A DNA stretch of 64,000 bases, taken from Paracoccus sp. (in: a-proteobacteria). GTDB lineage: Bacteria; Pseudomonadota; Alphaproteobacteria; Rhodobacterales; Rhodobacteraceae. Of this stretch, positions 25,858-50,775 are shown one piece after another; the first letter of the stretch is position 1; every line of letters starts with the position of its first letter. The notes beneath the pieces were generated by a model. The model had not been told where the DNA came from. It worked only from the letters and a program-made list of their open reading frames with translations, and searched no databases. Location of the stretch: the NCBI RefSeq assembly GCF_030538495.1, contig NZ_JAUNTW010000008.1, positions 82,683 through 146,682 of the forward strand, in the 5' to 3' direction. The position numbers were made by a program, and so were the translations under genes.

Positions 25858-25862
25858 CCAAG

Positions 25863-26630: not shown

Positions 26631-26647
26631 GAAGGGGACAGGGGATC

Positions 26648-27679
26648 ATGGCTGATTTTTGGGCATCTTCCTTAGGGATCGCGGTTATCCTGCTGGCGCA
26701 GGGTCTGGCGGTGATTGCCTTTGTGATGATCTCGCTGATCTTTTTGGTCTATGGCGACCGGAAAATCTGGGCGGCGGTGCAAATGCGGCGCGGCCCGAAC
26801 GTGGTTGGACCGTGGGGTTTGCTGCAAACCTTTGCCGACGCATTGAAATTTGTGGTTAAAGAAATCGTCGTTCCGGCGGGTTCCGACAAATTCGTGTTCT
26901 TTCTGGCGCCGTTTTTGTCGATGACGTTGGCGCTCTTGGCCTTCGTCGCGATTCCCTTTGCGCCGGGCTGGGTGATGGCCGACATCAATGTCGGCATCCT
27001 GTTCATTTTCGCCGTGTCCAGCCTTGAGGTTTATGGCGTCATCATGGGCGGCTGGGCGTCGAACTCGAAATATCCGTTCCTTGGATCGCTGCGGTCGGCG
27101 GCCCAGATGATTTCGTATGAAGTCTCGATGGGCCTGATCATCATCGGCATCATCATCTCGGCCGGTTCGATGAACCTGACCGCCATCGTCGAGGCGCAGC
27201 GCGGCGCCGGTCTGTTGTCGTGGTTCTGGCTGGCGCATCTGCCGATGCTGGTGCTGTTCTTTGTGTCGGCTCTGGCCGAAACGAACCGCCCGCCGTTCGA
27301 TCTGCCCGAGGCAGAATCGGAACTGGTCGCGGGCTTTATGGTCGAATATTCGTCCACGCCTTACCTGCTGTTTATGGCAGGGGAATATATCGCCATCTGG
27401 TTGATGTGCGCGTTGATTTCGCTGCTGTTTTTCGGTGGTTGGCTGTCGCCGATCCCCGGCCTGCCCGATGGCGCGCTGTGGATGTTCATCAAAATGGTGT
27501 TCTGGTTCTTCATGTTCGCCATGGTGAAAGCCATCGTTCCGCGCTATCGCTATGACCAGTTGATGCGCATCGGTTGGAAGGTGTTCTTGCCGCTGTCGCT
27601 GGGCTGGGTTGTGATCGTGGCCTTTCTTGCGAAATTCCAGGTGTTCGGGACGTTCTGGGCCCGTTGGGCGGGGGTGTAA
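26648..27679 (+). CDS. nuoH: NADH-quinone oxidoreductase subunit H
   Basis: [21 protein letters not shown] and eight TM helices. The start was chosen at MADFWAS. Confidence 0.93.
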
Positions 27680-27682
27680 TCC

Positions 27683-28174
27683 ATGGCATTTGATCTGATG
27701 CGCGCCACCAAATACTTTTTGATGGTGGACTTTATCAAAGGCTTTGGCGTGGGGATGAAGTATTTCTTTGCGCCGAAACCGACGATCAACTACCCCCACG
27801 AAAAGGGGCCGCTGTCGCCGCGTTTCCGGGGCGAACACGCGCTGCGCCGTTACCCGAATGGCGAAGAACGCTGTATCGCCTGCAAACTGTGCGAGGCGAT
27901 TTGCCCCGCTCAGGCGATTACGATTGACGCGGAACCCCGCGCCGATGGCAGCCGCCGCACGACGCGTTATGACATCGACATGACCAAATGCATCTATTGC
28001 GGATTCTGCCAAGAGGCATGTCCGGTCGATGCCATCGTCGAAGGTCCGAATTTCGAATTCGCCACCGAAATGCGCGAAGAACTGTTTTATAACAAACAGA
28101 AACTCTTGGATAACGGCGCCCGGTGGGAGGCGCAGATCGCCCGTAACCTTGCTATGGATGCGCCCTACCGATGA
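27683..28174 (+). CDS. nuoI: NADH-quinone oxidoreductase subunit I
   Basis: Two CxxCxxCxxxCP ferredoxin motifs. Confidence 0.95.
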
Positions 28175-28584
28175 ACGACGCTTTCCAGAAAATGTTTCAG
28201 CAGATGGTTGCCTCGGGTCAGGAAATGGCGCGGGCGTTCAACCCTGCGCTGGAACATTTCGACCCGCGCGCCTTTGAAAAGCTGATCCCCACCATGCCCG
28301 CCGACATGATGGAGATGTGGTTTGGCAAGACCTTTAACCGCGACGGTCTGGACGCTAAAACGCGTCTGCTGGTCACGATTGCCGCGATGACCGTGCAGGG
28401 GGCGCACGCCGAACCGCAATTGCGCATGGCCATTCGCCACGCGGTCGAGGCTGGGGCGAAACCGCGCGAAATCGCCGAAGTGATTTATCAAATGGGCATG
28501 TTTGGTGGCCTGCCGGCCATGCAAAAGGCGCTGGAAATTGCGCAAGGCGTCTTTACCGAAGCCGAGAGGAGCGAAACGGAATGA
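28171..28584 (+). CDS. Carboxymuconolactone decarboxylase (AhpD-like) family protein, nuo URF
   Basis: CMD-family core around [22 protein letters not shown]. It overlaps nuoI and nuoJ by 4 nt each. Confidence 0.7.
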
Positions 28585-29183
28585 TGACATTTGCCTTCTA
28601 CCTGTTCGCGATTTCGGTCTGCATTGCGGGCTTTATGGTCGTGTTGGCCCGCAACCCGGTGCATTCCGTGCTGTGGCTGATCCTGGCGTTTCTGTCGGCG
28701 GCGGGCCTCTTTGTGCTGCTGGGCGCGGAATTTGTCGCCATGTTGCTGGTCATCGTCTATGTCGGTGCCGTGGCGGTGCTGTTCCTGTTCGTTGTCATGA
28801 TGCTGGATGTCGATTTCGCCCAGCTCAAAGGCGAATTTGCCCAATATCTGCCACTGGCGGGCCTGATTGGTCTGGTGCTGCTGGCGCAGTTGGGCATTGC
28901 TTTTGGCGCGTGGCAATCGTCGGATCAATCCGCGACGCTGCGGGATCTGCCAATCGCGCATGAAGTGCTGAACACCCGTGCCATCGGCATGGTCATGTAT
29001 GACCGCTTTATCCTGCCGTTCCAGATTTCGGGCCTGATCCTGTTGGTCGCAATGATTGGCGCGATCACTCTGACCATGCGTCACCGCCGCGACATCAAAC
29101 GTCAGGATGTGATCGAACAGATGCACCGCGACCCGGCCAAAGCCATGCAGTTGCGCGATGTCAAACCGGGGCAGGGACTATGA
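28581..29183 (+). CDS. nuoJ: NADH-quinone oxidoreductase subunit J
   Basis: NuoJ TM-helix pattern (FAFYLFA...[17 protein letters not shown]). Confidence 0.92.
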
Positions 29184-29251
29184 GCCGAACCGTTATCGTC
29201 GTTGTTGTTGTGATCGTTGTGCTGGTCGTCGGATTTAGCGGCTTCAGATAA
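29180..29251 (+). CDS. Putative 23-aa hydrophobic micro-ORF ([23 protein letters not shown]) overlapping the nuoJ stop
   Basis: ATGA overlap with the nuoJ stop. It is too short for the ORF track and is built from a (GTY)n simple-sequence tract. It could equally be non-coding. Confidence 0.3.
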
Positions 29252-29590
<339 letters not shown>

Positions 29591-29596
29591 TCCGGT

Positions 29597-31705
29597 ATGG
29601 CGCAATTTATCCTGTTTGCCCCGCTGCTGGGCGCCCTGATCGCCGGTTTCTGCTGGCGGCTGATTGGTGAACGCAGCGCGCAGTTGCTGACGACCGGCAT
29701 TTTGTTTGCCGCCGCCGCCGCCAGCTGGGTCCTGTTCCTGACCTTTGATGGTGAGGTGCGTCACCTGCCGGTGATGGATTGGGTTGTGTCGGGCGATTTT
29801 AGCTCGGCTTGGGCGATCCGTCTGGACCGCTTGACCGCGATTATGCTGATCGTCGTGACCTCGGTGTCGGCCTTGGTCCATTTGTATAGCTTTGGCTATA
29901 TGGCGCATGACGAAAATTTCAGCGATGCTGAACCCTATCGCGCGCGTTTCTTTGCCTATCTGTCGTTCTTCACCTTTGCCATGCTGATGCTGGTGACGGC
30001 GGATAACCTGTTGCAGATGTTCTTTGGTTGGGAAGGCGTGGGCGTTGCGTCCTATCTGCTGATCGGTTTTTACTTTAAGAAACAATCGGCTGGCGCTGCG
30101 GCGATGAAGGCGTTCATCGTGAACCGCGTCGGCGATTTCGGTTTCCTGCTGGGGATTTTTGGCATCTGGTGGCTGACCGGCAGCATCCAGTTTGATGATA
30201 TTTTCGCGCAAGTGCCGATGCTGGCCGCGACCGATATTCGGTTCCTGTGGGCCGATTGGAATGCCGCGAACCTGCTGGCCTTCCTGCTGTTTGTCGGCGC
30301 GATGGGCAAATCGGCGCAGCTGTTCCTGCATACCTGGCTGCCCGACGCGATGGAGGGGCCGACCCCCGTTTCGGCCCTGATCCACGCCGCGACCATGGTG
30401 ACCGCCGGTGTGTTTCTGGTCTGCCGCATGTCGCCTCTGTATGAATTCGCGCCCGAGGCCAAGAATTTCATCGTGATCATCGGCGCTTCGACCGCGTTTT
30501 TCGCGGCGACGGTGGGGCTGGTGCAGAACGATATTAAACGCGTGATCGCCTATTCGACCTGTTCGCAGCTGGGCTATATGTTCGTGGCGGCGGGCGTGGG
30601 CGTCTATTCGGTCGCAATGTTCCACCTGTTTACGCATGCTTTCTTCAAGGCGATGCTGTTCCTTGGCGCGGGCTCGGTAATCCACGCGATGCATCATGAA
30701 CAGGATTTGCGGAATTATGGTGGGCTGCGCAAAAAAATCCCGCTGACCTTTTATGCGATGCTGATCGGCACGCTGGCCATTACCGGGGTCGGTATCCCTC
30801 TGACGCATATCGGTTTTGCCGGCTACCTGTCCAAAGACGCCGTGATCGAAAGCGCCTTTGCGTCGGGGAATGGTTATGCCTTCTGGCTTCTGGTGGTGGC
30901 CGCGCTGATGACCAGCTTCTATTCGTGGCGGCTGATGTTCATGACGTTCTGGGGCAAACCGCGCGGCGATCATCATGCGCATGATCACGCCCATGAAAGC
31001 CCGTCGGTGATGACCATTCCGCTGGTCGTGCTGGCCGTCGGGTCGATTTTCGCCGGGATGGTCTGGTATAACAGCTTCTTTGGCAAAGATGACAGCGTGC
31101 GCGGTTTCTTTGGGATGCCGGTGATTTCGGCGTCGCATGATGAACCGACGACGGCTCTTGATGGTGCTGTGGCCGAGGCGCCGCAGGCCGAACCCCAGGG
31201 TGAGGCATTGCACAGCGCCGCCGGTGCCGCACAGGATCCGGCCCAGATCACCGTGACGCCGGGCGCGATTTACATGCACCCCGACAACCATGTGATGCAT
31301 GACGCGCATTATGTCCCGACCTGGGTCAAATTGTCGCCGTTCATTGCGATGCTGATTGGTCTGGGTCTGGCATGGCTGATGTATATCCGCCACCCCGAGG
31401 CTCCGGCGAAACTGGCCGCACAACAGCCGGTTCTGTATAATTTCCTGCTGAATAAATGGTATTTCGATCAGGTTTACGACGTCCTGTTCGTCCGCCCGGC
31501 GCGTTGGATTGGCGCGCGGCTGTGGACGGCTGGCGACGGAGCGGTTATCGACGGTGCCATTAACGGGGTTGCCTTGGGAATCATCCCGCGCCTGACCCGG
31601 TTCGCCGGGCGGGTGCAGTCGGGCTATCTGTTCCATTACGCCTTTGCGATGGTTTTGGGCATCGTAGGCTTGCTGATTTGGGTGATGATGCGAGGCGCGC
31701 ACTGA
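29597..31705 (+). CDS. nuoL: NADH-quinone oxidoreductase subunit L
   Basis: 702 aa antiporter-like subunit with the MFFGWEGVG and [23 protein letters not shown] motifs. Confidence 0.93.
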
Positions 31706-31706
31706 T

Positions 31707-33251
31707 ATGACGAACCTTCTTTCTATCATCACCTTCCTGCCGATTGTTGCGGCGGCGATTCTGGCGGTTGGCCTGCGTGGCGACGATGAGGCGGCGCAGC
31801 GCAATGCGAAATATGTCGCGCTGTTTGCGACCACGGCCACGTTCCTGATTTCGCTGGCGGTTTTGTTCGGCTTTGATCCGTCGAACACCGGTTTCCAATT
31901 CGTCGAAGATCGCGAATGGATCATGGGCCTGCGCTATAAGATGGGCGTGGACGGGATTTCGGTCCTGTTCGTCATGCTGACCACCTTCCTGATGCCGCTG
32001 ACGATCCTGTCCTGCTGGGATGTGAAAACGCGGGTCAAGGAATACATGATCGCCTTTCTGGTGCTGGAAGGGCTGATGATCGGCGTGTTCACCGCGCTTG
32101 ACCTGATCCTGTTCTATCTGTTCTTCGAAGCGGGCCTGATCCCCATGTTCCTGATTATCGGGATTTGGGGTGGCCAGAACCGGATTTACGCCGCGTTCAA
32201 GTTCTTTCTCTATACCTTCATCGGTTCGGTGCTGATGCTGGTGGCGATGATCGCCATGGCGATGACCGCCGGGACGACCGATATCGCGCAGTTGCTGACC
32301 TTTGATTTCCCGTCGGAAACCATGCGCGTGCTGGGCTTTACCGTTGTTGGCGGGATGCAGACGCTGCTGTTCCTGGCGTTCTTTGCCAGCTTTGCGGTGA
32401 AAATGCCGATGTGGCCGGTGCATACATGGTTGCCCGACGCGCATGTTCAGGCGCCGACCGCGGGTTCGGTCGTGCTGGCCGCCGTGCTGCTGAAAATGGG
32501 TGGCTATGGCTTCCTGCGTTTTTCGATGCCGATGTTCCCGGTCGCTGCGGATCTGCTGCAACCGCTGGTGCTGTGGCTGTCGGCTATTGCGATTGTCTAC
32601 ACCTCGCTGGTGGCTTTGGCCCAAAGCGATATGAAGAAACTGATCGCCTATTCCTCCGTCGCGCATATGGGTTATGTCACGATGGGGATTTTCGCCGCGA
32701 ACCAGCAGGGGATCGACGGTGCGATTTTCCAGATGCTGTCGCATGGCTTTATCTCGGGCGCGCTGTTCCTGTGTGTGGGCGTGATTTACGACCGGATGCA
32801 CACGCGCGAAATCGACGCCTATGGCGGCTTGGTCAACCGGATGCCGGTTTACGCTTTGGTGTTCATGTTCTTTACCATGGCTAATGTCGGCCTGCCGGGA
32901 ACTTCGGGTTTTGTGGGTGAGTTTCTGACCCTCTTGGGCGCGTTCCGGGCGAATACCTGGGTGGCCTTTGTCGCGGCAACCGGGGTGATCCTGTCGGCGG
33001 GCTATGCGCTGTGGCTGTATCGCCGCGTCACCATGGGCGCGCTGATTAAGGAAAGCCTGAAAACCATCACCGACATGACCCCGCGTGAGCGTTGGATTTT
33101 CGCCCCGCTGATCGCCATGACGTTGATTTTGGGTGTTTATCCGCGCCTTGTGACCGACATCACCGGACCGGCGGTTGAATCGCTGCTGGTGAATTTCCAC
33201 GCATCACTGCCGGTCGAGACCGGCGGCGATATGGCAACCGCCAGCCAATAA
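31707..33251 (+). CDS. nuoM: NADH-quinone oxidoreductase subunit M
   Basis: Antiporter-like. [12 protein letters not shown] motif. Confidence 0.93.
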
Positions 33252-33261
33252 GGACTGCAAG

Positions 33262-34776
33262 ATGACCGCGATGAATTTTTCGACCATTTTGCCTGAATTC
33301 TGGCTGGCTGTGTATGCCTTGGCCGCTCTGATGGCGGGGGCGTTTTTTGGCAAGGATGCGATTGCCAAGCTGATCCTGTGGGCCAGTGTTGCCGCCTTGC
33401 TGGTGGCTGGGCTGGCGGTTGGGCTGGACAACGGCCCGGCGCAAACTGCGTTTTTCGGGATGATTACCGATGATGCCTTTGGCCGCTTTGCCAAGGTCAC
33501 GGTCCTGTTGTCCGGCGCCGCCGTTCTGGCGATGAGCGCGGATTACATGGACCGTCAGCGCATGATGCGGTTTGAATATCCGATCCTGATTGTGCTGGCG
33601 ACCGTTGGTATGATGCTGATGGTATCGGCGGGCGACCTGCTGACGCTGTATATGGGGTTGGAACTGCAATCGCTGTCGCTCTATGTCGTGGCCGCGATGC
33701 GCCGCGAAAGCGTCAAATCGTCCGAGGCGGGCCTGAAATATTTCGTTCTTGGCGCGCTGTCGTCGGGTCTGTTGCTCTATGGTGCCTCGCTGGTTTACGG
33801 CTTTGCGGGGACGACGCAATTTGCCGGGATTATTCAGACGGTGATCGCGGGCAACCTGCCGATCGGCCTGCTGTTCGGTCTGGTGTTCCTGCTGGTTGGT
33901 CTGGCCTTCAAAGTGTCGGCGGTGCCGTTCCATATGTGGACGCCGGATGTTTACGAAGGCTCGCCCACGCCGGTGACCGCGTTTTTCGCGACCGCGCCCA
34001 AGGTGGCGGCCATGGCGCTGATCGCGCGGCTGATGTTTGACGCCTTCGGCAATGTCACCGGTGACTGGACCCAGATCATCGCGGCGCTTGCGGTGATGTC
34101 GATGTTCCTTGGCGCGATTGCCGGGGTGGGGCAGACGAATATCAAACGTCTGATGGCCTATTCATCGATCGCGCATATGGGCTTTGCTTTGGTTGGTCTG
34201 GCGGCTGGCACGGCTTTGGGTGTTCAGGCGATGCTGATTTATATGGCGATTTACGCCGTGATGAATGTCGGGGCCTTTGCCTTTATTCTGTCGCTGGAAC
34301 GTGACGGGCAGCCGGTGACCGAAATTGCGGCGCTGAACCAGTTCTGGCGCGTTGACCCGCTGAAGGCGGTTGCCGTGCTGGTCCTGATGTTCAGCTTGGC
34401 CGGTGTGCCGCCGCTGCTGGGGTTCTTTGCCAAGCTGTCCGTGCTGACGGCTGCGGTTGATGCCGGGATGGCGTGGCTGGCGGTTGCGGGTGTGATCGCG
34501 TCGGTGATTGGCGCGTTTTATTACCTGCGCATCGTTTACTATGTCTATTTCGGGGCGGAAACGGACCCGGTGACCAGCCGTATGGGGCCGGTGCAGATGG
34601 TGGCGATGCTGGGGTCGGTGCTGATCATCGTGCTGGGCGCGGTGTCGATGCTGGGCGTGGATCGTGCGGCAGGGCGCGCGGCGGAATCGCTGGTTGCTGT
34701 GCCGGTGATTACGGCGCAGCCGGGCGGCGCGATTGTCCCCGCTGCCACCCTGACCGAGCCGGTCCCGAGTGAGTAA
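33262..34776 (+). CDS. nuoN: NADH-quinone oxidoreductase subunit N
   Basis: Antiporter-like. [18 protein letters not shown] motif. Confidence 0.92.
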
Positions 34777-35530
34777 TCCGCAGCCGTGGCCGGATGGTGT
34801 CGCGCGGCATGTTCTGGACCGCGTGGACAGCACCAATGCCGAGGCGATGCGTCTGGCCGGTTCCCTTTCGGGGCCGGCTTGGATCATGGCGCGGCGGCAG
34901 GAATCCGGGCGCGGCAGGCGTGGGCGGGTCTGGAGCGATCCGCCGGGGAACTTTGCCGCAACCCTGTTGATGCGTCCCGATGGCGGCGCGGCGGATGCGG
35001 CGCGGTATTCCTTTGTTGCGGCTCTGGCGGTTGATACGGCGCTGCGCCAGTTATGCGGGCCGCAGGTGAATCTGTCGCTGAAATGGCCCAATGATGTGCT
35101 GTTGAACGGCGGCAAATTGGCGGGGATTCTGCTGGAAAGCGTGGGTGCGGGCGGATCGGTCAACGCGCTTGCCGTTGGGATTGGCGTGAACCTGACCCAC
35201 ACTCCCGACCATGTCGAATCTGGCGCGATGCGTCCGGTCAGCGTTCTGGGCGAAACCGGGCTGACCCTAACCGCGGATGAGCTGCTGGATGCCCTTGCCC
35301 CGGCCTTTGACCATTGGGCGCGGCAGATGCGGGATTATGGCTTTGGCCCGATCCGCCATGCATGGCTGGCGCGCGCGGCCAAGCTGGGCGAAACCATCAC
35401 GGCGCGCACCGGCACCACGGAAACGGTCGGGCGGTTTGATGGCATCGACGACACCGGCGCGTTGATGCTGACCACCCCGCGCGGTCCGCAGGCGATCCCT
35501 GCGGCCGATGTGTATTTCACCGGGGGCTGA
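34769..35530 (+). CDS. birA: Biotin--[acetyl-CoA-carboxylase] ligase (group I, without a DNA-binding domain)
   Basis: GTG start overlapping the nuoN stop. [18 protein letters not shown] matches the BirA GRGRRG.W biotin-binding loop. The conserved alphaproteobacterial position after nuoN fits. Confidence 0.85.
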
Positions 35531-35531
35531 T

Positions 35532-36311
35532 ATGTTACTGTGCATCGACACCGGCAACACGAATACGGTCTTTTCCATCTGGGACGGCACGCAATTTCTG
35601 TCGCATTGGCGGATCAGCACGGATCACCGGCGGACGGCGGATGAATATTTCGTCTGGCTGTCCACGCTGATTTCGGTGCGTAAATTCGACCTGAATATCG
35701 ACGCCTGCATTATCAGCGCGACCGCCCCGCGCGTGGTGTTTAACCTGCGTGTGCTGTGCAACCGGTATTTCGACATTCGCCCGCTGGTCGTGGGCAAACC
35801 CGAATGTTTGCTGCCCGCGCCGCCGCAGGTCGATCCGGGGACGAAGGTTGGTCCCGACCGTCTGGCCAATGCGGTTGCCGCCTTTGACCGGCACGGCGCC
35901 GACAGCGTGGTGGTGGATTTCGGCACCGCGACGAATTTTGACGTGGTGGGCGCGAATGGGGCCTATGTTGGCGGCGTGATTGCGCCCGGCGTGAACCTGT
36001 CGCTTGAGGCGTTGCACAGCGCCGCAGCCGCCTTGCCGCATGTCGATGTGACCATGCCCGACCGCGTGATCGGCACCAACACGATTGCCTGCATCCAGTC
36101 AGGGATTTACTGGGGCTATATCGGGTTGATCGAAGGGATCACCCGCCGCATTTGCGCCGAACGCGACAAACCAATGAAAATCATTGCAACCGGGGGGCTT
36201 GCCCCGTTGTTTGATCAGGGGTTTGATCTGTTCGACGCCATCGAAGACGACCTGACCGTTCACGGTCTGCGATTGATACATGATTACAACAAGGAGATGG
36301 GCAATGGCTGA
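35532..36311 (+). CDS. coaX: Type III pantothenate kinase
   Basis: LLCIDTGNTNT N-terminus (the CoaX/Bvg accessory factor motif) and GTAT..D. Confidence 0.9.
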   Translation: MLLCIDTGNTNTVFSIWDGTQFLSHWRISTDHRRTADEYFVWLSTLISVRKFDLNIDACIISATAPRVVFNLRVLCNRYFDIRPLVVGKPECLLPAPPQVDPGTKVGPDRLANAVAAFDRHGADSVVVDFGTATNFDVVGANGAYVGGVIAPGVNLSLEALHSAAAALPHVDVTMPDRVIGTNTIACIQSGIYWGYIGLIEGITRRICAERDKPMKIIATGGLAPLFDQGFDLFDAIEDDLTVHGLRLIHDYNKEMGNG

Positions 36312-37980
36312 GCGCCTGATCTATCTGCCGCTGGGCGGCGCGGGCGAAATCGGCATGAACGCCTATGTCTATGGCTATGGCGTGCCGGGGAAAGAACGGC
36401 TGATTCTGGTCGATCTGGGCGTCAGCTTTGGCGATATGGACAGCAGCCCCGGCATTGATCTGATCATGCCGGACATCACATGGCTGGAACAAAACCGCGA
36501 CCGGCTGGAGGCGATTTTTATCACCCACGCCCACGAAGACCATATCGGCGCCCTTGGGCATCTGTGGGGGCGGCTGGATGTTCCGATCTATGCCCGCCAA
36601 TTCACCGGCGCGCTGATCCGCCTGAAGCTGGAGGAACAGGGCCATCCGGCAAACGCCGTGAACATCACCGGCCCCCGCCCCGAGGTGACGCAGGCCGGCC
36701 CGTTCAACGTGCAATTCGTGCCGATCAGCCATTCGATCCCGGAAAGCGCGGCGCTGATTATCGACACGCCCGCCGGTCGGATCGTCCATTCGGGCGATTT
36801 CAAACTGGACAGCGCCCCCGTCGTTGGCGAGGCGTTTGACCCGATCCTGTGGCGCGACATTGCCGCCGAAGGGCGCGGCATCAAGGTGATGACCTGCGAC
36901 AGCACCAACATCTTTTCCACCCATCCGGGGCGGTCGGAATCCATGCTGGCCAACCCGATTCTGGAATGGGTGATGGCGCAGAAAAACATGATCGTTGCGA
37001 CCACCTTTGCGTCGAATGTCGCGCGTCTGAAAACGCTGGCTGATGCCGCCGTGGCCTCGGGGCGCAAGATTTGCCTGTTGGGTCGCGCGATGCGGCGGAT
37101 GGTTTCGGTCGCCTTGGAAACCGGCGTGTTGCAGGATTTCCCCAGCACCATCGGCCCGGATGAGGCCGCCAGCCTGCCGCGTCATCAGGTCATGCTGATC
37201 GCCACCGGCAGTCAGGGCGAACGCCGCGCCGCCAGTGCGCAATTGTCCCGCGGCCGCTATCTGGGCCTGTCCTTGAAAGAGGGCGACAGCTATCTGTTCA
37301 GTTCGAAAACCATCCCCGGCAATGAAAAGCCGGTCGGGCGGATCATGAACGCGCTGTCGGAATTGGGCGTTGACGTTTACGATGCCGATGACGGGCTGTT
37401 CCATGTCTCGGGTCACGCCAACCGCCCGGACATCGAGGCGATGCACGAACTGCTGAAACCGAAAATCGTGATCCCGCAGCATGGCGAACATCTGCATCTG
37501 CGCGAACATGTTCTGTTGGCGCGGTCCAAGGGGATGGCGTCCGAAATCGCCACCAATGGCACCATGCTGGATCTGACCGGCGACACCCCGCGCGTGGTTG
37601 ATCAGGTCGAAAGCGGCAAGCTGTATCTGGACGGCAATGTGCTGATCGGGGCCATGGACGGCATTGTCCGCGACCGGATTCGCATGGCGCTGAACGGTCA
37701 CGCCATGGTCAGCGTGATCGTGGATGAAGACGACAATGTTCTGCCCGATGCCTGGGTTGAACTGATGGGCCTGTCCGAACGCACCCGCGGCGGCGATGAT
37801 CTGGCCCGCCAGATCGAAGGCGAACTGGCGGATTTCCTGGAAGGCGCGGACCGCCGCACCGTCAACGACGACAGCAAAATGGACGAGGCGATCCGCAAGA
37901 TCACCCGTCAGGTTGCCATGGAAGAAATCGGCAAAAAGCCCGAGGTGACGGTAATTATCAGCCGTCTGGCTGCGGACTGA
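36304..37980 (+). CDS. rnj: Ribonuclease J (metallo-beta-lactamase / beta-CASP)
   Basis: HAHEDHIG metal motif and beta-CASP motifs. 559 aa. Confidence 0.88.
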   Translation: MAERLIYLPLGGAGEIGMNAYVYGYGVPGKERLILVDLGVSFGDMDSSPGIDLIMPDITWLEQNRDRLEAIFITHAHEDHIGALGHLWGRLDVPIYARQFTGALIRLKLEEQGHPANAVNITGPRPEVTQAGPFNVQFVPISHSIPESAALIIDTPAGRIVHSGDFKLDSAPVVGEAFDPILWRDIAAEGRGIKVMTCDSTNIFSTHPGRSESMLANPILEWVMAQKNMIVATTFASNVARLKTLADAAVASGRKICLLGRAMRRMVSVALETGVLQDFPSTIGPDEAASLPRHQVMLIATGSQGERRAASAQLSRGRYLGLSLKEGDSYLFSSKTIPGNEKPVGRIMNALSELGVDVYDADDGLFHVSGHANRPDIEAMHELLKPKIVIPQHGEHLHLREHVLLARSKGMASEIATNGTMLDLTGDTPRVVDQVESGKLYLDGNVLIGAMDGIVRDRIRMALNGHAMVSVIVDEDDNVLPDAWVELMGLSERTRGGDDLARQIEGELADFLEGADRRTVNDDSKMDEAIRKITRQVAMEEIGKKPEVTVIISRLAAD

Positions 37981-37990
37981 TCGGGGGGCA

Positions 37991-38008
37991 GGGGGCCTTT
38001 CAGCCCCC
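37991..38008 (+). terminator. GC-only hairpin after rnj (GGGGGC-CTTTCA-GCCCCC), without a U-tract
   Basis: Seen directly 10 nt after the rnj stop. It may be a terminator or processing hairpin. Confidence 0.4.
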
Positions 38009-38040
38009 CTCTTGGCCGTTGGCCAATTCACCCCCTTGAG

Positions 38041-38060
38041 GATATTTTTGCACAGAAGAT
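38041..38060 (+). repeat. Copy 1 of the 22-bp motif family (GATATTTTTGCACAGAAGAT), followed by the hairpin AAGGCGGGC-N10-GCCCGCCTT at 38061-38088
   Basis: Seen directly in the rnj/trmB intergenic region. Confidence 0.7.
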
Positions 38061-38104
38061 AAGGCGGGCTTGACGATAGGCCCGCCTTGCGTCACTGGGC
38101 CGCT

Positions 38105-38821
38105 ATGACTGATGAACCGATAACCGAATTTGATCCCAACCCGCCGCGCCGTAATTTTTACGGGCGGCGGCATGGGAAGACGTTGCGCCACAGCCAGAAG
38201 GGCTATCTGTCCGAGGACTTGGGCGAATTGCGTCCGCGTGGCATCACCGTGCAGGACAACCCCGAACGCCGCGTGATTGATCCGACGGCGATTTTTGGCG
38301 ATGACCGGCCGATTTGGTTAGAGGTGGGCTTTGGCGGCGGTGAGCATATGGTTCACATGGCCAAGACCTATCCCGATATTGGCATTATCGGGTGCGAGCC
38401 GTTTATTAACGGGGTCGCGATGCTGTTGGGGAAAATCCGTGCGGCGGGTGTGGAAAATGTCAGCGTGCATCCCGGCGATGCGCGGGATTTGATGGATGTG
38501 TTGCCGGATGCCTGCATTGATCGGGCGTTTCTGATGTATCCCGATCCGTGGCCCAAGGCCCGCCATCACCGCCGCCGTTTCGTGACGCCGGAACATCTGT
38601 TGCCTTTGGCGCGGGTGATGCGACCGGGCGGAGTGTTCCGCGTGGCGACCGATATTCCCGATTATGTGCGTCAGACGTTGGAGCAGGTGCCGCCTGCCGG
38701 GTTTGATCTGGTGTCGGAAACGCCGCAGGCTTGGGATGATTGGATCAGCACCCGCTACGAACAGAAGGCGCTGCGCGAAGGCCGTCCGCCGCATTATGTC
38801 ACGTTTCGTCGTCAGGGCTGA
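38105..38821 (+). CDS. trmB: tRNA (guanine-N7)-methyltransferase
   Basis: WLEVGFGGGEHMVHMA and D.WPK..HHRRR motifs. ATG at 38105 is preferred over the TTG at 38087. Confidence 0.88.
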   Translation: MTDEPITEFDPNPPRRNFYGRRHGKTLRHSQKGYLSEDLGELRPRGITVQDNPERRVIDPTAIFGDDRPIWLEVGFGGGEHMVHMAKTYPDIGIIGCEPFINGVAMLLGKIRAAGVENVSVHPGDARDLMDVLPDACIDRAFLMYPDPWPKARHHRRRFVTPEHLLPLARVMRPGGVFRVATDIPDYVRQTLEQVPPAGFDLVSETPQAWDDWISTRYEQKALREGRPPHYVTFRRQG

Positions 38822-38827
38822 TCTGCG

Positions 38828-40396
38828 ATGATCCGCGCGCTGCCCTATCTGGTGGCGGGGGCGCTGTTTGTACTGGGGCTGTGGGCGATGTATCGCCTGC
38901 TGGCGCCGGTGGATCTGGCGCAGGTGGCCGCGCAAATCCGGGCGACGCCGTGGCCGGTGATGGGCTTGGCGCTGATGGCGACGCTGTGCGGCTATCTGTG
39001 TCTGGCCGGTTATGATTGGTCGGCGCTGCGTTATATCGGCAAGCCGCTGCCGTTGCCGGTGGTGATGACGGGCGGGCTGATGGCCTATGCCTTTGGGAAC
39101 ACGATCGGGTTAACCGCGATTTCGGGTGGAGCGGTCCGGTGGCGCGTGTATTCCGGGCTGGGGCTGACCGGGTTGGATATTGCCGCGATTTCGACCTTTA
39201 CGGCGGTGTCTTATGGCATGGCGGCGACGGTGATCGGGCTGGGCGCATTAGCCGCGCATCCCACGGCACTGGCCGCGATGCTGCCGTTTTCGGCGGGTGT
39301 CGTGCGGATTGCGGCGGTCGCGGCGATTGTGGCGATTATGGGGCCGCTGGTCTGGGCGTCGCGGTCGGGGCGGGCGCTGCGGTGGCGGCGGTTTGCGCTG
39401 CGCGCGCCGTCGCTGCCGGTTTTGGGGGCGCAGGTCGCGATCAGTCTGGGCGATGTCGTGTCGGCGGCTTTGGTGCTGTATTTGTTCCTGCCGGTGACGG
39501 ATTGCGGTTTTTTCACCTTTCTGGCGGTGTTTGCGGCGGCGATGATGGCGGGGGTGATCAGCCATGTTCCCGGCGGCATCGGCGTGTTCGAGGTGGTGAT
39601 TATGGCCGCCATGCCCACAGGCACGCCGGTGGGTCAGGTCGCGGCGGCGCTGCTGTTGTTTCGGATGGTCTATTATCTGGTGCCGTTTGGGGCGGCGCTG
39701 TTGCTGTTGTCGGCCTACGAAGGGTGGCGGATGTTGGGCCGTCCGATGCTGCCGTCGCGGCTGGGGCATCTGGTGGGCGTTATCGAACCGGCGCTGCGGG
39801 CGGTGACGGCGTTAACTCCGGTGGTGCTGGCGGTGATGATCTTTGGGTCGGGGCTGTGGATGACGTTGTCGGCCATTCTGCGCCTGTCCCCCGCCACCGA
39901 TGACGCGGCCGAGGCGTTGTTTCCATTGGCATTTGTCGATGGGTCGGCGTTGATGTCGAGTGCTTTGGGAACGGGTCTGATCGTGCTGTCGCTGGGCGTT
40001 CTGGCGCGGTCGCGTGGGGCGTTCTGGCTGGCCGTGGCGGCCATGGCGGCGGGTGTTGGCGTGGCGTTAACCGGTCAACCGGAATGGGAACGCGCGGCGG
40101 CGCTGACGGTGGCGATTGGGGTGTTGCTGCCGTTTCGGCATGGGTTTGACCGTGACGCGGTGCTGACCCATGCGCCGTTCACGCCGGGTTGGGTTGCGCT
40201 GTTGCTGGCGGCGGTGTCGGGCTTTGGCTGCGTGTTGTTTTTCGCCGGGGAAAGCATGGCCTTTTCCGGCAAGCTGTGGTGGCAATTTGCCCTGGACGAC
40301 ACCGCGCCCCGCTGGCTGCGTGCGGGGTTAACGGCGGGGCTGTTGGTTGGGGTTGGCGCGCTGATTATGCTGTTGCGCGCGCCCGACCGGCGTTAG
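38828..40396 (+). CDS. UPF0104 / lysyl-phosphatidylglycerol-synthase-TM-like polytopic membrane protein (flippase-like)
   Basis: 522 aa and entirely hydrophobic helices. The N-terminal region resembles the MprF TM-domain family (recalled from memory). There is no synthase domain. Confidence 0.6.
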   Translation: MIRALPYLVAGALFVLGLWAMYRLLAPVDLAQVAAQIRATPWPVMGLALMATLCGYLCLAGYDWSALRYIGKPLPLPVVMTGGLMAYAFGNTIGLTAISGGAVRWRVYSGLGLTGLDIAAISTFTAVSYGMAATVIGLGALAAHPTALAAMLPFSAGVVRIAAVAAIVAIMGPLVWASRSGRALRWRRFALRAPSLPVLGAQVAISLGDVVSAALVLYLFLPVTDCGFFTFLAVFAAAMMAGVISHVPGGIGVFEVVIMAAMPTGTPVGQVAAALLLFRMVYYLVPFGAALLLLSAYEGWRMLGRPMLPSRLGHLVGVIEPALRAVTALTPVVLAVMIFGSGLWMTLSAILRLSPATDDAAEALFPLAFVDGSALMSSALGTGLIVLSLGVLARSRGAFWLAVAAMAAGVGVALTGQPEWERAAALTVAIGVLLPFRHGFDRDAVLTHAPFTPGWVALLLAAVSGFGCVLFFAGESMAFSGKLWWQFALDDTAPRWLRAGLTAGLLVGVGALIMLLRAPDRR

Positions 40397-44878: not shown

Positions 44879-45910
44879 TTACGCTGCGTCACCCAGCAAT
44901 TCGCGGGCGATTTTGCGGACGATGGGGGCGGCTTCGGCCTCGGACATGCCGGGGCGCAGGCGGGGGTCATACAGGATTTTCAACAGAAATTCGTCATGCC
45001 GGGTCAGCAGAGCGAATTCTTCGTCATCGTTGAAAATGGACGGGCGCGCGGCGGGGCTGTCATTGGCCAGCCCCATCCCCTGCGCCAGTTCTTCGTGGAT
45101 GCAGGATGTGCGCAAGAGCGGCGGTAATTCCGCCCGGATCAGCGCCACAGCATAGGAATAGGTCGCCTGCGCCCCCCGGGAATAGGCGAACACGCTGCAC
45201 GAAATATCGGGCGGCAGATCGGCCAGCATCGCCACATCCTGCGCCGGAATACCGGGGATCAGGTCGGCCAGACGCGGGCCGATGGCGCGGCGTTCGTCAT
45301 CGGTCAGGATTAAGACGTTGAAATTGCCCGCATCGGCGGTCATCGACACCGGATGCCCGGTCACGCGCGACAGCCGCGCGGCAAAGGCGCCAATCTGCGC
45401 CCGCCATGCGCTGCGTTCGGCGGCGTCGCTGGATGGGCCGAATTCCAACCGGATGCGCACAGGATCGGCCCAACGGCGCAAGGGGGCCGGGCGCGCCTGC
45501 GCGATCAGCCGGTCGCCGTCGCGGCTGTATTCATCAAACAGGGCGATGCGGATGAAATTGCGGGCCAGATCATCGGCGGTAAAGGGCGCGTCGGCGGGCG
45601 CGCGATCGCGGCGCAAACGGCCATCTGCACGCAAACGGGTTTCCATGCGGGCATAGAAATCACGTTGCGATATGCTGGCGGTGCTGGTGGTCGCGGCGGC
45701 GCGTATGGCGGCGCGATTTGCGGCGCGGTTGCGTTCGGCGCGGGCCGCGCGAAGATCGGCCTGCGTCGGCAGGGTGGGCGCCACATCAGGGCGCGCGACC
45801 GGACGGGGGGATGTCGGCGCGGGCGTGGCCACGGGGTCGGGGCGCTGACAGGCGGCGGTTGCCACCAATATCAACGCCACAGCCACCCGTATCAGCCGCG
45901 CCCCCGACAT
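44879..45910 (-). CDS. Lipoprotein of unknown function (DUF2927-like, Rhodobacterales)
   Basis: Signal peptide plus lipobox LVATAAC. Its ATG overlaps the telA-like stop (TAATG). Confidence 0.6.
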   Translation of the reverse strand: MSGARLIRVAVALILVATAACQRPDPVATPAPTSPRPVARPDVAPTLPTQADLRAARAERNRAANRAAIRAAATTSTASISQRDFYARMETRLRADGRLRRDRAPADAPFTADDLARNFIRIALFDEYSRDGDRLIAQARPAPLRRWADPVRIRLEFGPSSDAAERSAWRAQIGAFAARLSRVTGHPVSMTADAGNFNVLILTDDERRAIGPRLADLIPGIPAQDVAMLADLPPDISCSVFAYSRGAQATYSYAVALIRAELPPLLRTSCIHEELAQGMGLANDSPAARPSIFNDDEEFALLTRHDEFLLKILYDPRLRPGMSEAEAAPIVRKIARELLGDAA

Positions 45911-47094
45911 TACGCGCCGCGCTGTTCCGTGATGGCCGCCGTCTGATGACGGGCCGATGCGGATGACAAGGCGTCGCGCAGGTCACCCTCCATCCGGGTC
46001 AGTTCGGTTTCGGCGGCGGCGCGGCGGGCCTTACCTTCGTCGGCGATGCGCAGGCTATCCTCGATCGTGGCGATCAGTTCGGCATTGGCGGCCTGCACGG
46101 CCTGAATGTCAAACACGCCGCGTTCGGTTTCGGTGCGGATTTGCGCATTGGCCTGACGCAGATTTTCGGCGTTTTTCGTCAGCAATTCATTGGTCAAATC
46201 GCTGGCCTCGCGCACGGCGCGGGCGGCATCGGCGCTGCGCTGAATGGTGACGGCCTGCGCCAGCTGCGTTTCCCACAGCGGCACCGTATTCACCAAGGTG
46301 CTGTTGATTTTCGTGACCAGCGATTTGTCGTTTTCCTGCACCAACCGGATCGAGGGCAGCGACTGCATCGTCACCTGACGGGTCAGTTTCAGGTCATGCA
46401 CGCGGCGTTCCAGATCATCGCGCAGGGTGCGCAGATCGCGCAGTTCCTGCGCCTCCATCACCTGATCTTCGGGGGCTTTGGCGGCAACCTCGGCCTCTTT
46501 CGCCGGAATGGTGGTGCTGTCCAGTTCGCGCAGTTTTTCTTCGCCCGCAGCGATATACAGCGCCAGTTCGTCATAAAAGGCCAGCGTGCGATCATACAGC
46601 ACATCCAGCGATTTGATATCTTTTAACAGGGTTTGTTCATGCGTTTCCAGATCGGTGGTGATGCGGTCAATCTGGGTTTGCACCTGTTCATAATTCGCCA
46701 CGAATTTGGCAAAGGGCGCGGACCGGCCCAGCAGCTTTTCCCACCACGACCGGGTGCGGCGCATGTCCAGTTCGGATGTGGAAAAACCGCGAATGGTGGT
46801 GACGACCTGACGCAGGCTATCGCCCGCCGGGCCAACATCCTTGGATTTCACATCGGCCAGCATTTGTTGGCTGATTTCTTGCAGGCTGGCCTGCGCGCGG
46901 GTGCCGAACCGGACGATGGAACCCGTGTCGCGCAGGTCGATTTCGTCCATGCGTTTGCGGATTTCAGCGGCGGTCGCGGTGTCCGCCTGAGACAGCGCGA
47001 CGGGCTGCGCCTGCGGTTCGGCCAGCACAACGGCGGTCACTTCTTCGATGTCTTTCAAGGCGGCTTCGGCGCGGCGGCGGGTGTCTTGGGTCAT
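45910..47094 (-). CDS. telA: TelA/KlaA-family toxic-anion-resistance protein (long coiled-coil)
   Basis: ~395 aa alpha-helical protein matching the TelA-family pattern throughout (MTQDTRRRAEAAL...). The start was chosen at M51 of the track ORF. Confidence 0.7.
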   Translation of the reverse strand: MTQDTRRRAEAALKDIEEVTAVVLAEPQAQPVALSQADTATAAEIRKRMDEIDLRDTGSIVRFGTRAQASLQEISQQMLADVKSKDVGPAGDSLRQVVTTIRGFSTSELDMRRTRSWWEKLLGRSAPFAKFVANYEQVQTQIDRITTDLETHEQTLLKDIKSLDVLYDRTLAFYDELALYIAAGEEKLRELDSTTIPAKEAEVAAKAPEDQVMEAQELRDLRTLRDDLERRVHDLKLTRQVTMQSLPSIRLVQENDKSLVTKINSTLVNTVPLWETQLAQAVTIQRSADAARAVREASDLTNELLTKNAENLRQANAQIRTETERGVFDIQAVQAANAELIATIEDSLRIADEGKARRAAAETELTRMEGDLRDALSSASARHQTAAITEQRGA

Positions 47095-47207
47095 CGGTGG
47101 TCCTTTCGTCGGACATATGCGGCGGGACGGTTCAGGCGCAGCATAGGCAAAGTTCACCGCCCTGCAACCGGTCAAACATGAAATCGTTCCACTCGCGCAA
47201 AAGGATC

Positions 47208-47221
47208 GGGGGCTAGCCCCC
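47208..47221 (-). terminator. Perfect palindrome GGGGGCTAGCCCCC followed on the minus strand by CCTTTTG; likely the fadB terminator
   Basis: Seen directly, 36 nt downstream of the fadB stop. Confidence 0.55.
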
Positions 47222-47230
47222 GAACCCCCA

Positions 47231-47252
47231 GAGTATTTGCGCACAGAAGAAG
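47231..47252 (+). repeat. Copy 2 of the conserved 22-bp motif family (GAGTATTTGCGCACAGAAGAAG)
   Basis: It shares TATTT-N3-CACAGAAGA with the four other copies. Confidence 0.7.
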
Positions 47253-47256
47253 CGGC

Positions 47257-49431
47257 CTAGGCTGCCTTTTGGGCAAAGCGCTGATAGAAGTCTTCGCCTT
47301 TTTCGGCCATGTCACGCAGCAGGTCCGGCGCGGCAAAGCGGTCGCCATAGTGCGCGGCCAGCCCGTCGGCGATGTCAACCGCGCGGGCGGCGCCCATCAT
47401 GTCCAGCCAGCTGAACGGCCCGCCCGACCACGGCGCAAAGCCCCAGCCCAGAATCGCGCCGACATCGCCTTCGCGAATGTCGGTCAGAACGCCGTCTTGC
47501 AGGGCGCGCACGGCCTCGATCGTTTGGGCGAACATCAGGCGGTGCTGAACCGTGGTCAGGTCGGGCTGTTCGCCCTGCGGCCAATGATCAGCCAGCCCCG
47601 GCCACAGCCCGCCGCGTTTGCCCGCATCGTCGTAATCGTAAAAGCCCGCGCCAGCCTTGCGGCCCATGCGCCCCAGATCGGCCAGTTTGAAGATCACGTC
47701 ATCAACCGCGCCATCGGGATAGGCGTCGCCCATGGCGGCCCGCGTGGCGCGCGCGATTTTCACGCCCAGATCAATCGACGTTTCGTCAACCAACTGCAGC
47801 GGACCCAGCGGCATCCCCATCATTTTCGCCGCGTTTTCGATCAGCGTGGGGTTCACGCCTTCGCCGACCATGCGGATGCCTTCGTTGATATAGGGGATGA
47901 TGCAGCGATTGGCGTAAAAGAACCGCGCGTCATTCACCACGATCGGCGTTTTGCGGATTTGGCGCACGAAATCCAATGCCTTGGCCACGGCGCGGTCGCC
48001 GGTTTGTTTGCCGCGGATGATTTCCACCAGCAGCATCTTATCAACGGGGCTAAAGAAGTGGATGCCGATAAACTGATCGGGCCGCGCCGATGCCTGTGCC
48101 AGATCGCTGATCGGCAGGGTGGATGTGTTGGTCGCGAAAATCGCATCCGGCGGGATCACGGCTTCGGCCTGTTGGGTAACCTGGGCCTTGATCGCGGGGT
48201 CTTCGAACACGGCTTCAATCACCAGATCGCAGCCGTCAAGCGCGGCATAATCGGTCGTGGCGTGGATGCGGGCCAGCACCTGTTCTTTCTTATCCTCGGT
48301 CGCTTTTTTGCGGCTGATGGCTTTGTCCAGAAGGCCCGCCGAATACGCCTTGCCCCGATCCGCCGAATCCTGCGCGGCGTCGATCAGCACAACGTCGATC
48401 CCCGCCATGGCCGAGACATAGGCGATGCCCGCGCCCATCATCCCCGCGCCAATAACGCCGACCTTGCGCACCTTTTGATCGGGGGCCTCGGGGCGGTTTG
48501 CGCCTTTTTCCAATGCCTCTTTGTTGATGAACAGGCTGCGGATCATGGCGGTGGATGACGGGTTCATCAGCACATTGGTGAACCAGCGGGCCTCGATCCG
48601 CAGGGCGGTGTCAAAGGGCACCTGCGCGCCTTCGTAAACGGCCGACAGCAGCGCGCGCGCGGCGGGATAGACCCCCATGGTTTTGCCATGCACCATGGCC
48701 GAGGCCCCGACAAAGGTCATAAACCCCGCCGGATGATAGGGCGTGCCGCCGGGCATTTTGTAGCCGCGCGCATCCCACGGTTTCACCAGATCGGCGTCGG
48801 TCGCATTCAGCACCCAGTCGCGCGCGGCGGCGACGGGATCGGCCACAACCTCATCCACGACGCCGGCGGCTTTGGCCTTGTGCGGGGCGTTCAGTTTGCC
48901 TTCCAGCAGCAGGGGGGCGGCGGCCATGACGCCCATTTTCCGGGTCAGCCGCGTGGTGCCGCCCGCGCCGGGGAAAATGCCGACCATGATTTCCGGCAGC
49001 CCGATTTTCGCGCGCGGATTATCGGCGGCAAAGATGCGATGCGTCGCCAGAGGCAGTTCCAGACCGATGCCAAGCGCGGTGCCGGGCAGGGCGGTGGCAA
49101 TCGGTTTACCACCTTTCAGCGTTTTCGGATCCATCCCGGCGCGTTCGATTTTGCGCAGCACGGCATGCAGGGTCATGATGCCGTTATAGACCGATTCGGC
49201 CCCGCTTTCTTTCAGTTGTGCAATCACATTCAGGTCCATCCCACCGGCAAAATCGGGCTTGCCGGATGTGATCACAATGCCCTTGACCGCCGGATCCGCG
49301 ATCGCGTCGTCGATCAGCATGTTCAACGTCGCCACGCCTTGCAGCGACAGCACATTCATCGACTTGCCCGGAACGTCCCAGGTAATAATGGCCACGCCAT
49401 CGTCGCCGGTTTTCATGGTGAAATCGGTCAT
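47257..49431 (-). CDS. fadB: Fatty-acid oxidation complex alpha subunit (enoyl-CoA hydratase / 3-hydroxyacyl-CoA dehydrogenase)
   Basis: N-terminal crotonase fold and a central NAD-binding motif VGVIGAGMMGAGIA. Start at MTDFTMK with an AAGGA RBS. Confidence 0.9.
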   Translation of the reverse strand: MTDFTMKTGDDGVAIITWDVPGKSMNVLSLQGVATLNMLIDDAIADPAVKGIVITSGKPDFAGGMDLNVIAQLKESGAESVYNGIMTLHAVLRKIERAGMDPKTLKGGKPIATALPGTALGIGLELPLATHRIFAADNPRAKIGLPEIMVGIFPGAGGTTRLTRKMGVMAAAPLLLEGKLNAPHKAKAAGVVDEVVADPVAAARDWVLNATDADLVKPWDARGYKMPGGTPYHPAGFMTFVGASAMVHGKTMGVYPAARALLSAVYEGAQVPFDTALRIEARWFTNVLMNPSSTAMIRSLFINKEALEKGANRPEAPDQKVRKVGVIGAGMMGAGIAYVSAMAGIDVVLIDAAQDSADRGKAYSAGLLDKAISRKKATEDKKEQVLARIHATTDYAALDGCDLVIEAVFEDPAIKAQVTQQAEAVIPPDAIFATNTSTLPISDLAQASARPDQFIGIHFFSPVDKMLLVEIIRGKQTGDRAVAKALDFVRQIRKTPIVVNDARFFYANRCIIPYINEGIRMVGEGVNPTLIENAAKMMGMPLGPLQLVDETSIDLGVKIARATRAAMGDAYPDGAVDDVIFKLADLGRMGRKAGAGFYDYDDAGKRGGLWPGLADHWPQGEQPDLTTVQHRLMFAQTIEAVRALQDGVLTDIREGDVGAILGWGFAPWSGGPFSWLDMMGAARAVDIADGLAAHYGDRFAAPDLLRDMAEKGEDFYQRFAQKAA

Positions 49432-49442
49432 GTCGGTGTTCC

Positions 49443-50654: not shown

Positions 50655-50753
50655 GATTCCTCCTCCGGGTGGCCCGGTTGATGTGGCAGGCATCCGCCCC
50701 AGCGGGCAGAGTGCAACAAAGATGTAAATGTCCGGTTAACAGCGCAGGATATT

Positions 50754-50775
50754 GAGTATTTTTGCACAGAAGAAG
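50754..50775 (+). repeat. Copy 3 of the 22-bp motif (GAGTATTTTTGCACAGAAGAAG); the left arm of an inverted pair
   Basis: Seen directly. Confidence 0.75.

Follow-up and report, generated by a model that had tools for sequence, protein, structure and literature searches.

The 64,000-nt stretch of contig NZ_JAUNTW010000008.1 from Paracoccus sp. (GCF_030538495.1), hereafter the window, carries five copies of the bipartite motif TATTT-N3-CACAGAAGA, each lying between genes according to Pfam-supported gene models. Copy 1 occupies the spacer between the genes for RNase J (36280-37980) and TrmB; copy 2 separates the gene for TelA (45910-47175, minus strand) from a FadB-like gene (47257-49491, minus strand); copies 3 and 4 share the spacer between thiolase and acyl-CoA dehydrogenase genes, both on the minus strand; and copy 5 lies between the divergent genes for SurE (true start near 63310) and TauE. 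Exact matches to TATTTNNNCACAGAAGA fall at 38043-38059, 47234-47250, 50757-50773 and 63526-63542 on the plus strand and at 50821-50837 on the minus strand. This motif forms the conserved 3' end, or tail, of small, non-coding intergenic repeats of mosaic build, a family present across Paracoccus and related Paracoccaceae. A preliminary description of the window had counted a dispersed repeat among its candidate explanations, which the multi-copy element documented below across Paracoccus and related genera bears out, and had held the five copies to be intergenic and too many for chance, as is also the case; the gene upstream of the copy near 38 kb is corrected here to that for RNase J.

None of 100 dinucleotide-preserving shuffles of the window contained any match to the motif. 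Exact occurrences of CACAGAAGA in the window are confined to the five motif sites, one-mismatch variants of it number 7 with 5.8 expected, i.e., chance level, and an nhmmer profile built from 56 copies returned the same five sites, with no degenerate copies elsewhere in the window. The window thiolase matches a "Paracoccus sp." protein at 100% identity, its next best match standing at 83%; judged by sequence, the host is a divergent Paracoccus.

Architecture of the repeat unit

Aligned on the motif, the copies follow a constant order: a gene on the same strand ends with its stop codon, GC-rich hairpins (at least one) follow, and then come the C-run (A/T)CCCCC, 2-3 nt and the tail. A full unit begins with an optional 5' module, TTGCGTCCCGCGATGG. 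Hairpin H1 is built from G5-6 C, a loop of 3-5 nt and G C5-6, and the slot between H1 and the C-run is either empty or filled by one of several unrelated hairpin modules. The tail reads G(G/A)(A/G)TATTT-N3-purine-rich 9-mer-(T/A)G, with CACAGAAGA as the 9-mer in the window and in the species found by our scan (below). Over the 56 copies, conservation takes in the C-run at -10 to -6 and the tail and ends abruptly at +19, information content being at background level 2 nt beyond AGA. Earlier, a GC-rich hairpin had been described as beginning within ~10 nt of the motif at four of the five loci. The hairpin given as an example, AAGGCGGGC-N10-GCCCGCCTT (38061-38088, plus strand), does lie 3' of copy 1, where it is a local feature that the family at large does not share; the hairpins that recur consistently lie 5', not 3', the 55-nt upstream flanks folding to a mean of -25.5 kcal/mol and the downstream flanks to -18.2 kcal/mol (p = 1.6e-7).

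One tail type is found downstream of at least six different modules. Module A is CCGGGGGC...GCCCCCGG, often with TTGCGTCCCGCGATGG before it; module B is H1 plus a second hairpin, H2; module C is GCCTCCGGCGG; module D is GAAAAGGTCCACTGGACCTTTTC...GGCTCACCCC; module E is TCTTGGCC-N4-GGCCAATTC; and module F is GTCGCCGG..GGTTCTCGAACCA..CCGGCGAC. H2 is present in 16 copies, and its stems differ yet always pair (GTCC/GGAC, ATCTCC/GGAGAT, GTCGCC/GGCGAC, GCGCG/CGCGC); these stems were compared by direct listing, a MAFFT alignment of the two-hairpin copies having left them out of register. The modules recur in unrelated surroundings. Module D with its tail is found in window copy 5 and in loci L006 and L032, the flanks of which lack homology to the window, and module E serves as H2 both in window copy 1 and in L051 of P. 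tibetensis, two loci between which BLAST detects no homology. Set against its ortholog L008, L006 has module D inserted precisely where H1 meets the C-run, the same slot that is filled by H2 and, in P. saliphilus, by module F.

Tails occur alone, as singles, or as doublets in which two tails in inverted orientation are paired into a long hairpin; the window has three singles (38043, 47234 and 63526) and one doublet. Copy 1 (37981-38061, plus strand) is a single directly 3' of the RNase J stop codon (37978-37980) and comprises a G-run (37983-37988), H1 (37991-38009), H2 (38012-38026), the C-run ACCCCC (38030-38035) and the tail GGATATTT-TTG-CACAGAAGA-TA (38040-38061). Its G-run is able to pair with the C-run, enclosing H1 and H2 (z = -3.1), and in this optional fold the closing stem ends immediately 5' of GGAUAUUUUU. 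Copy 2 (47206-47252, plus strand), also a single, runs antisense to both of its minus-strand neighbours and consists of H1 (TCGGGGGCTAGCCCCCGA, 47206-47223), the C-run (47224-47229) and the tail GAGTATTT-GCG-CACAGAAGA-AG (47231-47252). Read on the minus strand, H1 followed by TCCTTTTGCG scores as terminator-like directly after the stop codon of the FadB-like gene, for which it is a plausible terminator.

Copies 3 and 4 form the inverted doublet (50746-50847, minus strand), situated between the acyl-CoA dehydrogenase stop codon (50872) and the thiolase start. Its arms (50754-50775, plus strand; 50819-50840, minus strand) bracket a GC-rich core (50776-50818), flanking GGATAT/ATATCC lengthens the stem, and the RNA folds into one hairpin of ~100 nt (-57 kcal/mol, z = -8.2). 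Copy 5 (63482-63544, plus strand) is a single made up of the module D hairpin GAAAAGGTCCACTGGACCTTTTC (63482-63504), CTCACCCC (63514-63521) and the tail GGGATATTT-ACG-CACAGAAGA-TC (63522-63544). Upstream of it in the SurE/TauE spacer stand two tandem hairpin modules of ~40 nt without tails (63396-63475, plus strand), of sequence GGGGGCCA(G/C)CCCCCC plus AGCCCG(T/C)CCCACGGGGA(T/C)GG, and together with copy 5 these constitute a cluster resembling a bacterial interspersed mosaic element (BIME).

Doublets are also present in L007, L053, L106, L107 and P. saliphilus. The convergent spacer of L084 consists, from stop codon to stop codon, of two inverted full units (-87.5 kcal/mol, z = -6.4), and since the C-run of one unit pairs in this fold with the G-run of the other, the functional arm measures ~30 nt.

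Species variants of the tail and turnover at orthologous sites

A collection holding one genome per species was scanned with the pattern GRRTATTTNNNCACAGAAGA, which occurred in at least 105 stretches. Among the 105 matches listed, 49 belong to Paracoccus or to other Rhodobacterales or alphaproteobacterial records, and the remainder are single matches in unrelated taxa; all but two of the 49 have the hairpin context. Paracoccus is represented among the listed matches by P. tibetensis, P. acridae, P. yibinensis, P. amoyensis, P. homiensis, P. haematequi, P. spongiarum, P. versutus, strain SSK6 and metagenome-assembled genomes, and beyond Paracoccus the family extends to Cereibacter, Gemmobacter, Cypionkella and Frigidibacter.

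Both blocks of the motif had been described as invariant, which holds within the window and fails elsewhere, where the 9-mer differs between species. It is TGAAGAAGA in P. saliphilus, CAACGAAGA or CACGAAAGA in P. versutus, AAACGGAAA or GAACAGAGA in P. denitrificans, AAACGGTGA in L113 and P. pantotrophus, and CCAGAATGA or CCAAGATGA in Cereibacter and Gemmobacter, with CCA(A/G)(G/A)ATGA also listed among the species variants. GGATATTT and the C-run remain constant across lineages with differing 9-mers. The complete 243-kb plasmid NZ_CP067141.1 of P. saliphilus carries 12 copies, and all 12 have an identical tail, with TGAAGAAGA as the 9-mer. These are restricted to the metabolic part of the plasmid (5.7-93 kb), with no copies in the 100-243 kb part that holds conjugation and polysaccharide genes and IS5/IS110 transposases, a contrast suggesting that the repeats accumulate in long-resident DNA and do not arrive via transferred DNA. 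A further observation on this plasmid concerns a complete unit (5' module, H1, module F and tail; ~47117-47254, corresponding to L108 ~8005-8142) that sits in frame in the 5' part, as annotated, of an AMP-binding gene of the acyl-CoA-synthetase type, adding ~45 residues that fall between motifs PDRPFL and LTYAEA; it reflects either a mis-annotated start codon or an insertion like that of the Rickettsia palindromic element.

Orthologous spacers differ in whether they are filled. The RNase J/TrmB spacer has an element in the window and none in L084, which has a doublet after trmB instead. L053 is filled where L106 (P. denitrificans) has an empty spacer of 28 nt, with the reverse situation 700 nt away. 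The FadB/PfkB spacer exists in three states, i.e., with an A-type unit in P. tibetensis, with a different arm in L113 and empty in L114. Downstream of acyl-CoA dehydrogenase, a doublet is present in the window, L109/L110, L113, P. denitrificans, P. pantotrophus and P. versutus, and the spacer is empty in L111, L112 and L114. This last doublet encloses locus-specific sequence and persists across species, and the arms of its orthologs co-vary: in five longer versions the same species-specific 9-mer appears in the left arm, in an internal reverse copy and in the distal arm. In the window, L113, P. denitrificans and P. versutus, the 9-mer of this locus is also that of unrelated copies in the same genome. 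Pairing of the arms accounts for covariation at this locus but not for agreement with the rest of the genome.

Two other features of the acyl-CoA dehydrogenase locus were observed. In five Paracoccus lineages the doublet contains a strongly conserved box, GGTCATCGGCTCYCCAGCCTGTACCG (L109 4864-4889, L113 646-671, L115 513-538, L116 500-525, L117 515-540), that is absent from the window. Plasmids of Shinella, Roseateles, Thiothrix and Azospirillum carry matches to it (85-97% over 32-47 nt), and no Rfam family corresponds to it; it may serve the fatty-acid degradation cluster as a small RNA or regulatory element. MerR-family regulator genes (52651-53043, minus strand, in the window; 2022-2897 in L109; and in orthologs) lie immediately upstream of the cluster of acyl-CoA dehydrogenase, thiolase and FadB genes, and regulation of that cluster more likely falls to them.

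Position at gene ends and candidate explanations

Elements start 0-30 nt 3' of the upstream stop codon. Their orientation was assessed in tandem gene pairs, convergent spacers being uninformative in this respect and divergent spacers, such as that of window copy 5, being rare as hosts. With rough gene calls and doublet arms removed, 17 copies were sense and 4 antisense to the flanking genes; the annotated P. saliphilus plasmid gave 6 and 2, for a combined 23 to 6 (p = 0.002). Two of the six sense copies on the plasmid are flanked by the genes for a TRAP or TAXI binding protein and for its permease, and one lies between hutG and hutU. On this plasmid, anything from 24 to ~300 nt separates the tail from the next start codon, so that it is no ribosome-binding module. 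In the 8-kb loci, the motif is on the G-rich strand 41 times and on the other 16 times. Within one replichore of NZ_CP067141.1, however, copies are split 5 plus to 5 minus, with no replication-strand polarity; the G-rich-strand skew is thus probably a side effect of gene co-orientation.

We consider it reasonably probable that the family is a non-autonomous repeat of the kind exemplified by repetitive extragenic palindromic (REP) sequences, BIMEs and Rhizobium-specific intergenic mosaic elements (RIMEs), which acts as an RNA hairpin cassette at 3' ends or between cistrons. Its units would be non-autonomous copies that settle or persist within a few nucleotides 3' of stop codons, for the most part sense to the upstream gene. 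Being mostly sense and just after a stop codon, they would be transcribed as part of 3' untranslated or intercistronic RNA. There, the GC-rich hairpins could block 3'-to-5' exonucleases or partly terminate transcription, and the single-stranded, AU-rich GGAUAUUU, which is rare in a genome of 62-68% GC, could provide a point of entry for an RNase E-type enzyme or a weak U-tract. The upstream gene would thereby become independent of the downstream one in stability or expression, an effect that the REP sequence between malE and malF of Escherichia coli has through 3'-end stabilisation and partial termination. The arrangement of hairpin and RNase E in the puf operon of Rhodobacter offers a parallel.

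Several results weigh against this cassette proposal. The RNA role is one that we propose from position and orientation. The upstream 55 nt are equally stable when folded as the forward (-25.5 kcal/mol) or the reverse strand (-25.8 kcal/mol), and G-U pairs show no forward excess (60 in the forward and 85 in the reverse fold), so that the structure carries no strand signal. Copies of the A and B types, the commonest, mostly have a C-rich spacer of 9-12 nt between hairpin and TATTT and are therefore not canonical intrinsic terminators; in C-type copies the stem is directly followed by GGATATTT, making a terminator layout plausible, and the same applies to copy 1 if its G-run and C-run pair. Genomes other than that of P. 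saliphilus are less uniform, in that the extra family members in loci fetched by exact match mostly have variant 9-mers. At the acyl-CoA dehydrogenase locus, the three 9-mer copies vary in concert from species to species. Simple copy-and-decay would not predict this pattern, which points to homogenisation or to a co-evolving recognition factor. As to means of spread, a tblastn search with E. coli RayT matched 32 records of a plasmid collection, none of them from Paracoccus, in a search that covered Paracoccus plasmids and chromids, among them the 1.4-2.2-Mb replicons carrying the repeats, and left main chromosomes outside its scope. The 3.6 kb between inverted copies in L006 contain no transposase, only housekeeping genes for RuvX, a CcmH-like protein and a DAO oxidoreductase, and no clear target-site duplication is seen at the filled/empty orthologous pairs.

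It is rather unlikely that the tail is instead a host-selected cis-element read by a trans-acting factor whose specificity drifts by species, with sites that co-evolve or are homogenised. Identity among copies would then mean recognition, not recent copying, and the factor might be a protein or RNA of gene ends (in termination, in processing or nucleoid-associated) or the element's own recombinase. Such an element would be in keeping with the bipartite layout of a fixed TATTT and 9-mer around a free 3-nt spacer, with the 12 of 12 identical copies on the P. saliphilus plasmid, and with the 9-mers at the acyl-CoA dehydrogenase locus, which are concordant in six lineages and, in the four genomes named above, equal to those of unrelated copies. 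The pairs L030/L058 and L040/L086 likewise keep both blocks while spacer and loops differ, a comparison biased by both members having been found by exact match. Base-pairing of the arms would also give covariation within a locus, however, several genomes have mixed variants, presence/absence and module swapping signify turnover and not fixed sites, and no candidate factor was found. We also judge it unlikely that the tail is a species-specific recognition code for a trans-acting protein or guide RNA at gene 3' ends, with hundreds of sites per genome, those inherited at fixed orthologous loci among them, kept matched; if true, concerted evolution would be at work throughout the genome, much as in the DNA uptake sequence (DUS) dialects that track ComP. 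There is only a slim chance that the units are foremost mobile elements, including REPIN-like units moved by a single-strand HUH transposase of the RAYT (REP-associated tyrosine transposase) type, with singles as decayed halves without host function. Terminal inverted arms of ~22-30 nt in the window, L084, L007, L106, L107 and P. saliphilus are what such elements would have, and the coexistence of singles and doublets, the uniformity of the 9-mer within genomes, the filled and empty orthologous sites and the in-frame P. saliphilus copy, so like the Rickettsia palindromic element, all fit. Yet the RayT search and the L006 interval yielded no autonomous partner, target-site duplications were not seen, singles far outnumber doublets, and sense copies prevail 23 to 6 after stop codons. 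The doublet of the acyl-CoA dehydrogenase locus, moreover, encloses locus-specific sequence and persists across species, and the 5/5 strand split on the complete plasmid weakens a mechanism based on lagging-strand single-stranded DNA.

A transcription-factor operator, through which a global regulator would govern fadAB, the acyl-CoA dehydrogenase gene, telA, trmB and tauE, as had been proposed, is very improbable. The 14-nt bipartite motif with its free spacer has the form of an operator, two copies flank fad genes, and MerR-family genes adjoin the acyl-CoA dehydrogenase gene; however, copies follow stop codons, lie between convergent genes or, in other genomes, stand inside unrelated operons (hut, TRAP, cob, nad), their neighbours are unrelated genes in each genome, hairpin modules are attached to the motif, and sites are not kept at orthologous promoters. 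Position, the gain and loss of copies at orthologous sites and the change of the 9-mer between species together rule out a regulon operator. A sigma-70 promoter scan gave no signal at the sites, the sequence 17 nt 5' of TATTT being a C/G-run and not TTGACA, and inspection agrees with the preliminary description that sigma-54 and RpoH consensus sequences do not fit, since the N3 spacer varies; the same holds for the DnaA box and IHF. Nor is there support for the motif as the 5' end of a small RNA or leader family, as had also been suggested: the gene end and the hairpins lie upstream of it, there is no promoter, and no consistent terminator follows. Rfam 15, applied at gathering score to the window and 18 related loci, returned only tRNA and the serC leader, away from the sites, and permissive scans of three sites returned only sub-threshold microRNA-like hairpin matches.

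We regard as highly improbable, too, a polar or uptake signal acting at the DNA level (DUS or uptake signal sequence [USS], Chi, or one resembling FtsK-orienting polar sequences), made uniform genome-wide by molecular drive and, as such signals frequently are, arranged in inverted pairs within terminators. Species-specific 9-mer "dialects", inverted pairs at gene ends, a core with an AT-rich flank as in USS, and the 41 to 16 excess on the G-rich strand of the 8-kb loci would suit such a signal. Enrichment within genes is lacking, however, exact copies being all intergenic and near-matches at chance; density reaches only ~1 copy per 10-20 kb; and strands are split 5/5 within one replichore of a complete replicon. 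A link to phages or gene transfer agents was also considered and rejected, as 68 of 69 viral-contig matches are chance-like and only the remaining one, a P. tibetensis copy, is a family member.

Two features of the window stand apart from the repeat. A 393-nt tandem duplication in a long open reading frame (2186-2808; 2186-2251 vs. 2579-2644 at 94%, 2262-2415 vs. 2655-2808 at 73%) probably corresponds to lipoyl domains duplicated in a 2-oxoacid dehydrogenase E2 subunit. Over a block of plus-strand genes from 24000 to 40000, GC skew is positive and AT skew takes strongly negative values (as low as -0.23); the block probably encodes membrane proteins of the nuo type.

Significance and relation to known systems

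We found no published description of this repeat, including in the literature on the Paracoccus mobilome, on Paracoccus small RNAs and on GTAG/CGTC REPs. For annotation, the units matter because they fill many short spacers in Paracoccus, Cereibacter (Rhodobacter) and Gemmobacter, among them models for denitrification and photosynthesis. Overlooked, they will be misread as operators, small RNAs or terminators, and at least one appears to lengthen an annotated coding sequence. Should they prove to be 3'-end or intercistronic cassettes, they would shape expression ratios within operons, e.g., of binding protein to permease, and would provide portable parts for expression engineering in high-GC alphaproteobacteria. 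That the tail has changed in concert at an inherited locus poses the question of how short dispersed repeats stay uniform.

The closest likeness is to the REP and BIME sequences of E. coli and other gammaproteobacteria, which are also short, extragenic and multi-copy, form hairpins after gene ends and inside operons, build mosaic clusters with other motifs and exist in genome-specific sequence variants. Singlets and inverted doublets are shared with REP sequences and REPINs, and the REP sequence at malE-malF has its parallel in the two copies between binding-protein and permease genes. In REP sequences, however, it is the palindrome that is conserved, whereas here the hairpins vary and conservation resides in a non-palindromic, single-stranded tail of ~30 nt; a variable hairpin slot with an invariant tail is the reverse of the classic REP element. 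In addition, no GTAG/CGTC abuts the stems, and where GCGTCCCGCGA occurs, as in some copies, it stands at a distance of 10-15 nt upstream from H1, unlike the published layout. BIME- and RIME-type mosaics also join the same motifs to different neighbouring modules at different loci. RIMEs and CGTC-tagged REPs are alphaproteobacterial, intergenic and mosaics of palindromic modules as well, but CGTC REPs have no sequence similarity to the present family, nor are RIMEs known to have any. CGTC REPs have stems of 8-9 bp starting with A-T pairs, loops of 4-5 nt and CCA tails (PMC3733652), none of which fits the units described here.

[quoted passage not shown] Only the doublets share their terminal inverted repeats, however; neither a related insertion sequence nor a target-site duplication was seen, most units are single tails on unrelated hairpins, and one doublet encloses locus-specific sequence. 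With intrinsic and bidirectional terminators the units have in common a GC-rich stem between a purine-rich arm and its pyrimidine-rich complement, placed after stop codons and between convergent genes; they differ in that the flank is a fixed sequence, not merely U-rich, and that most singles have the C-rich spacer. The DUS of Neisseria and USS of Haemophilus that occur in terminators offer a last comparison, as DUS come in species "dialects" as well, but the motif described here is not over-represented within genes. Ultimately, the family is of a known kind, that of small intergenic mosaic repeats, in an unusual form that combines variable hairpins with an invariant, species-specific tail.

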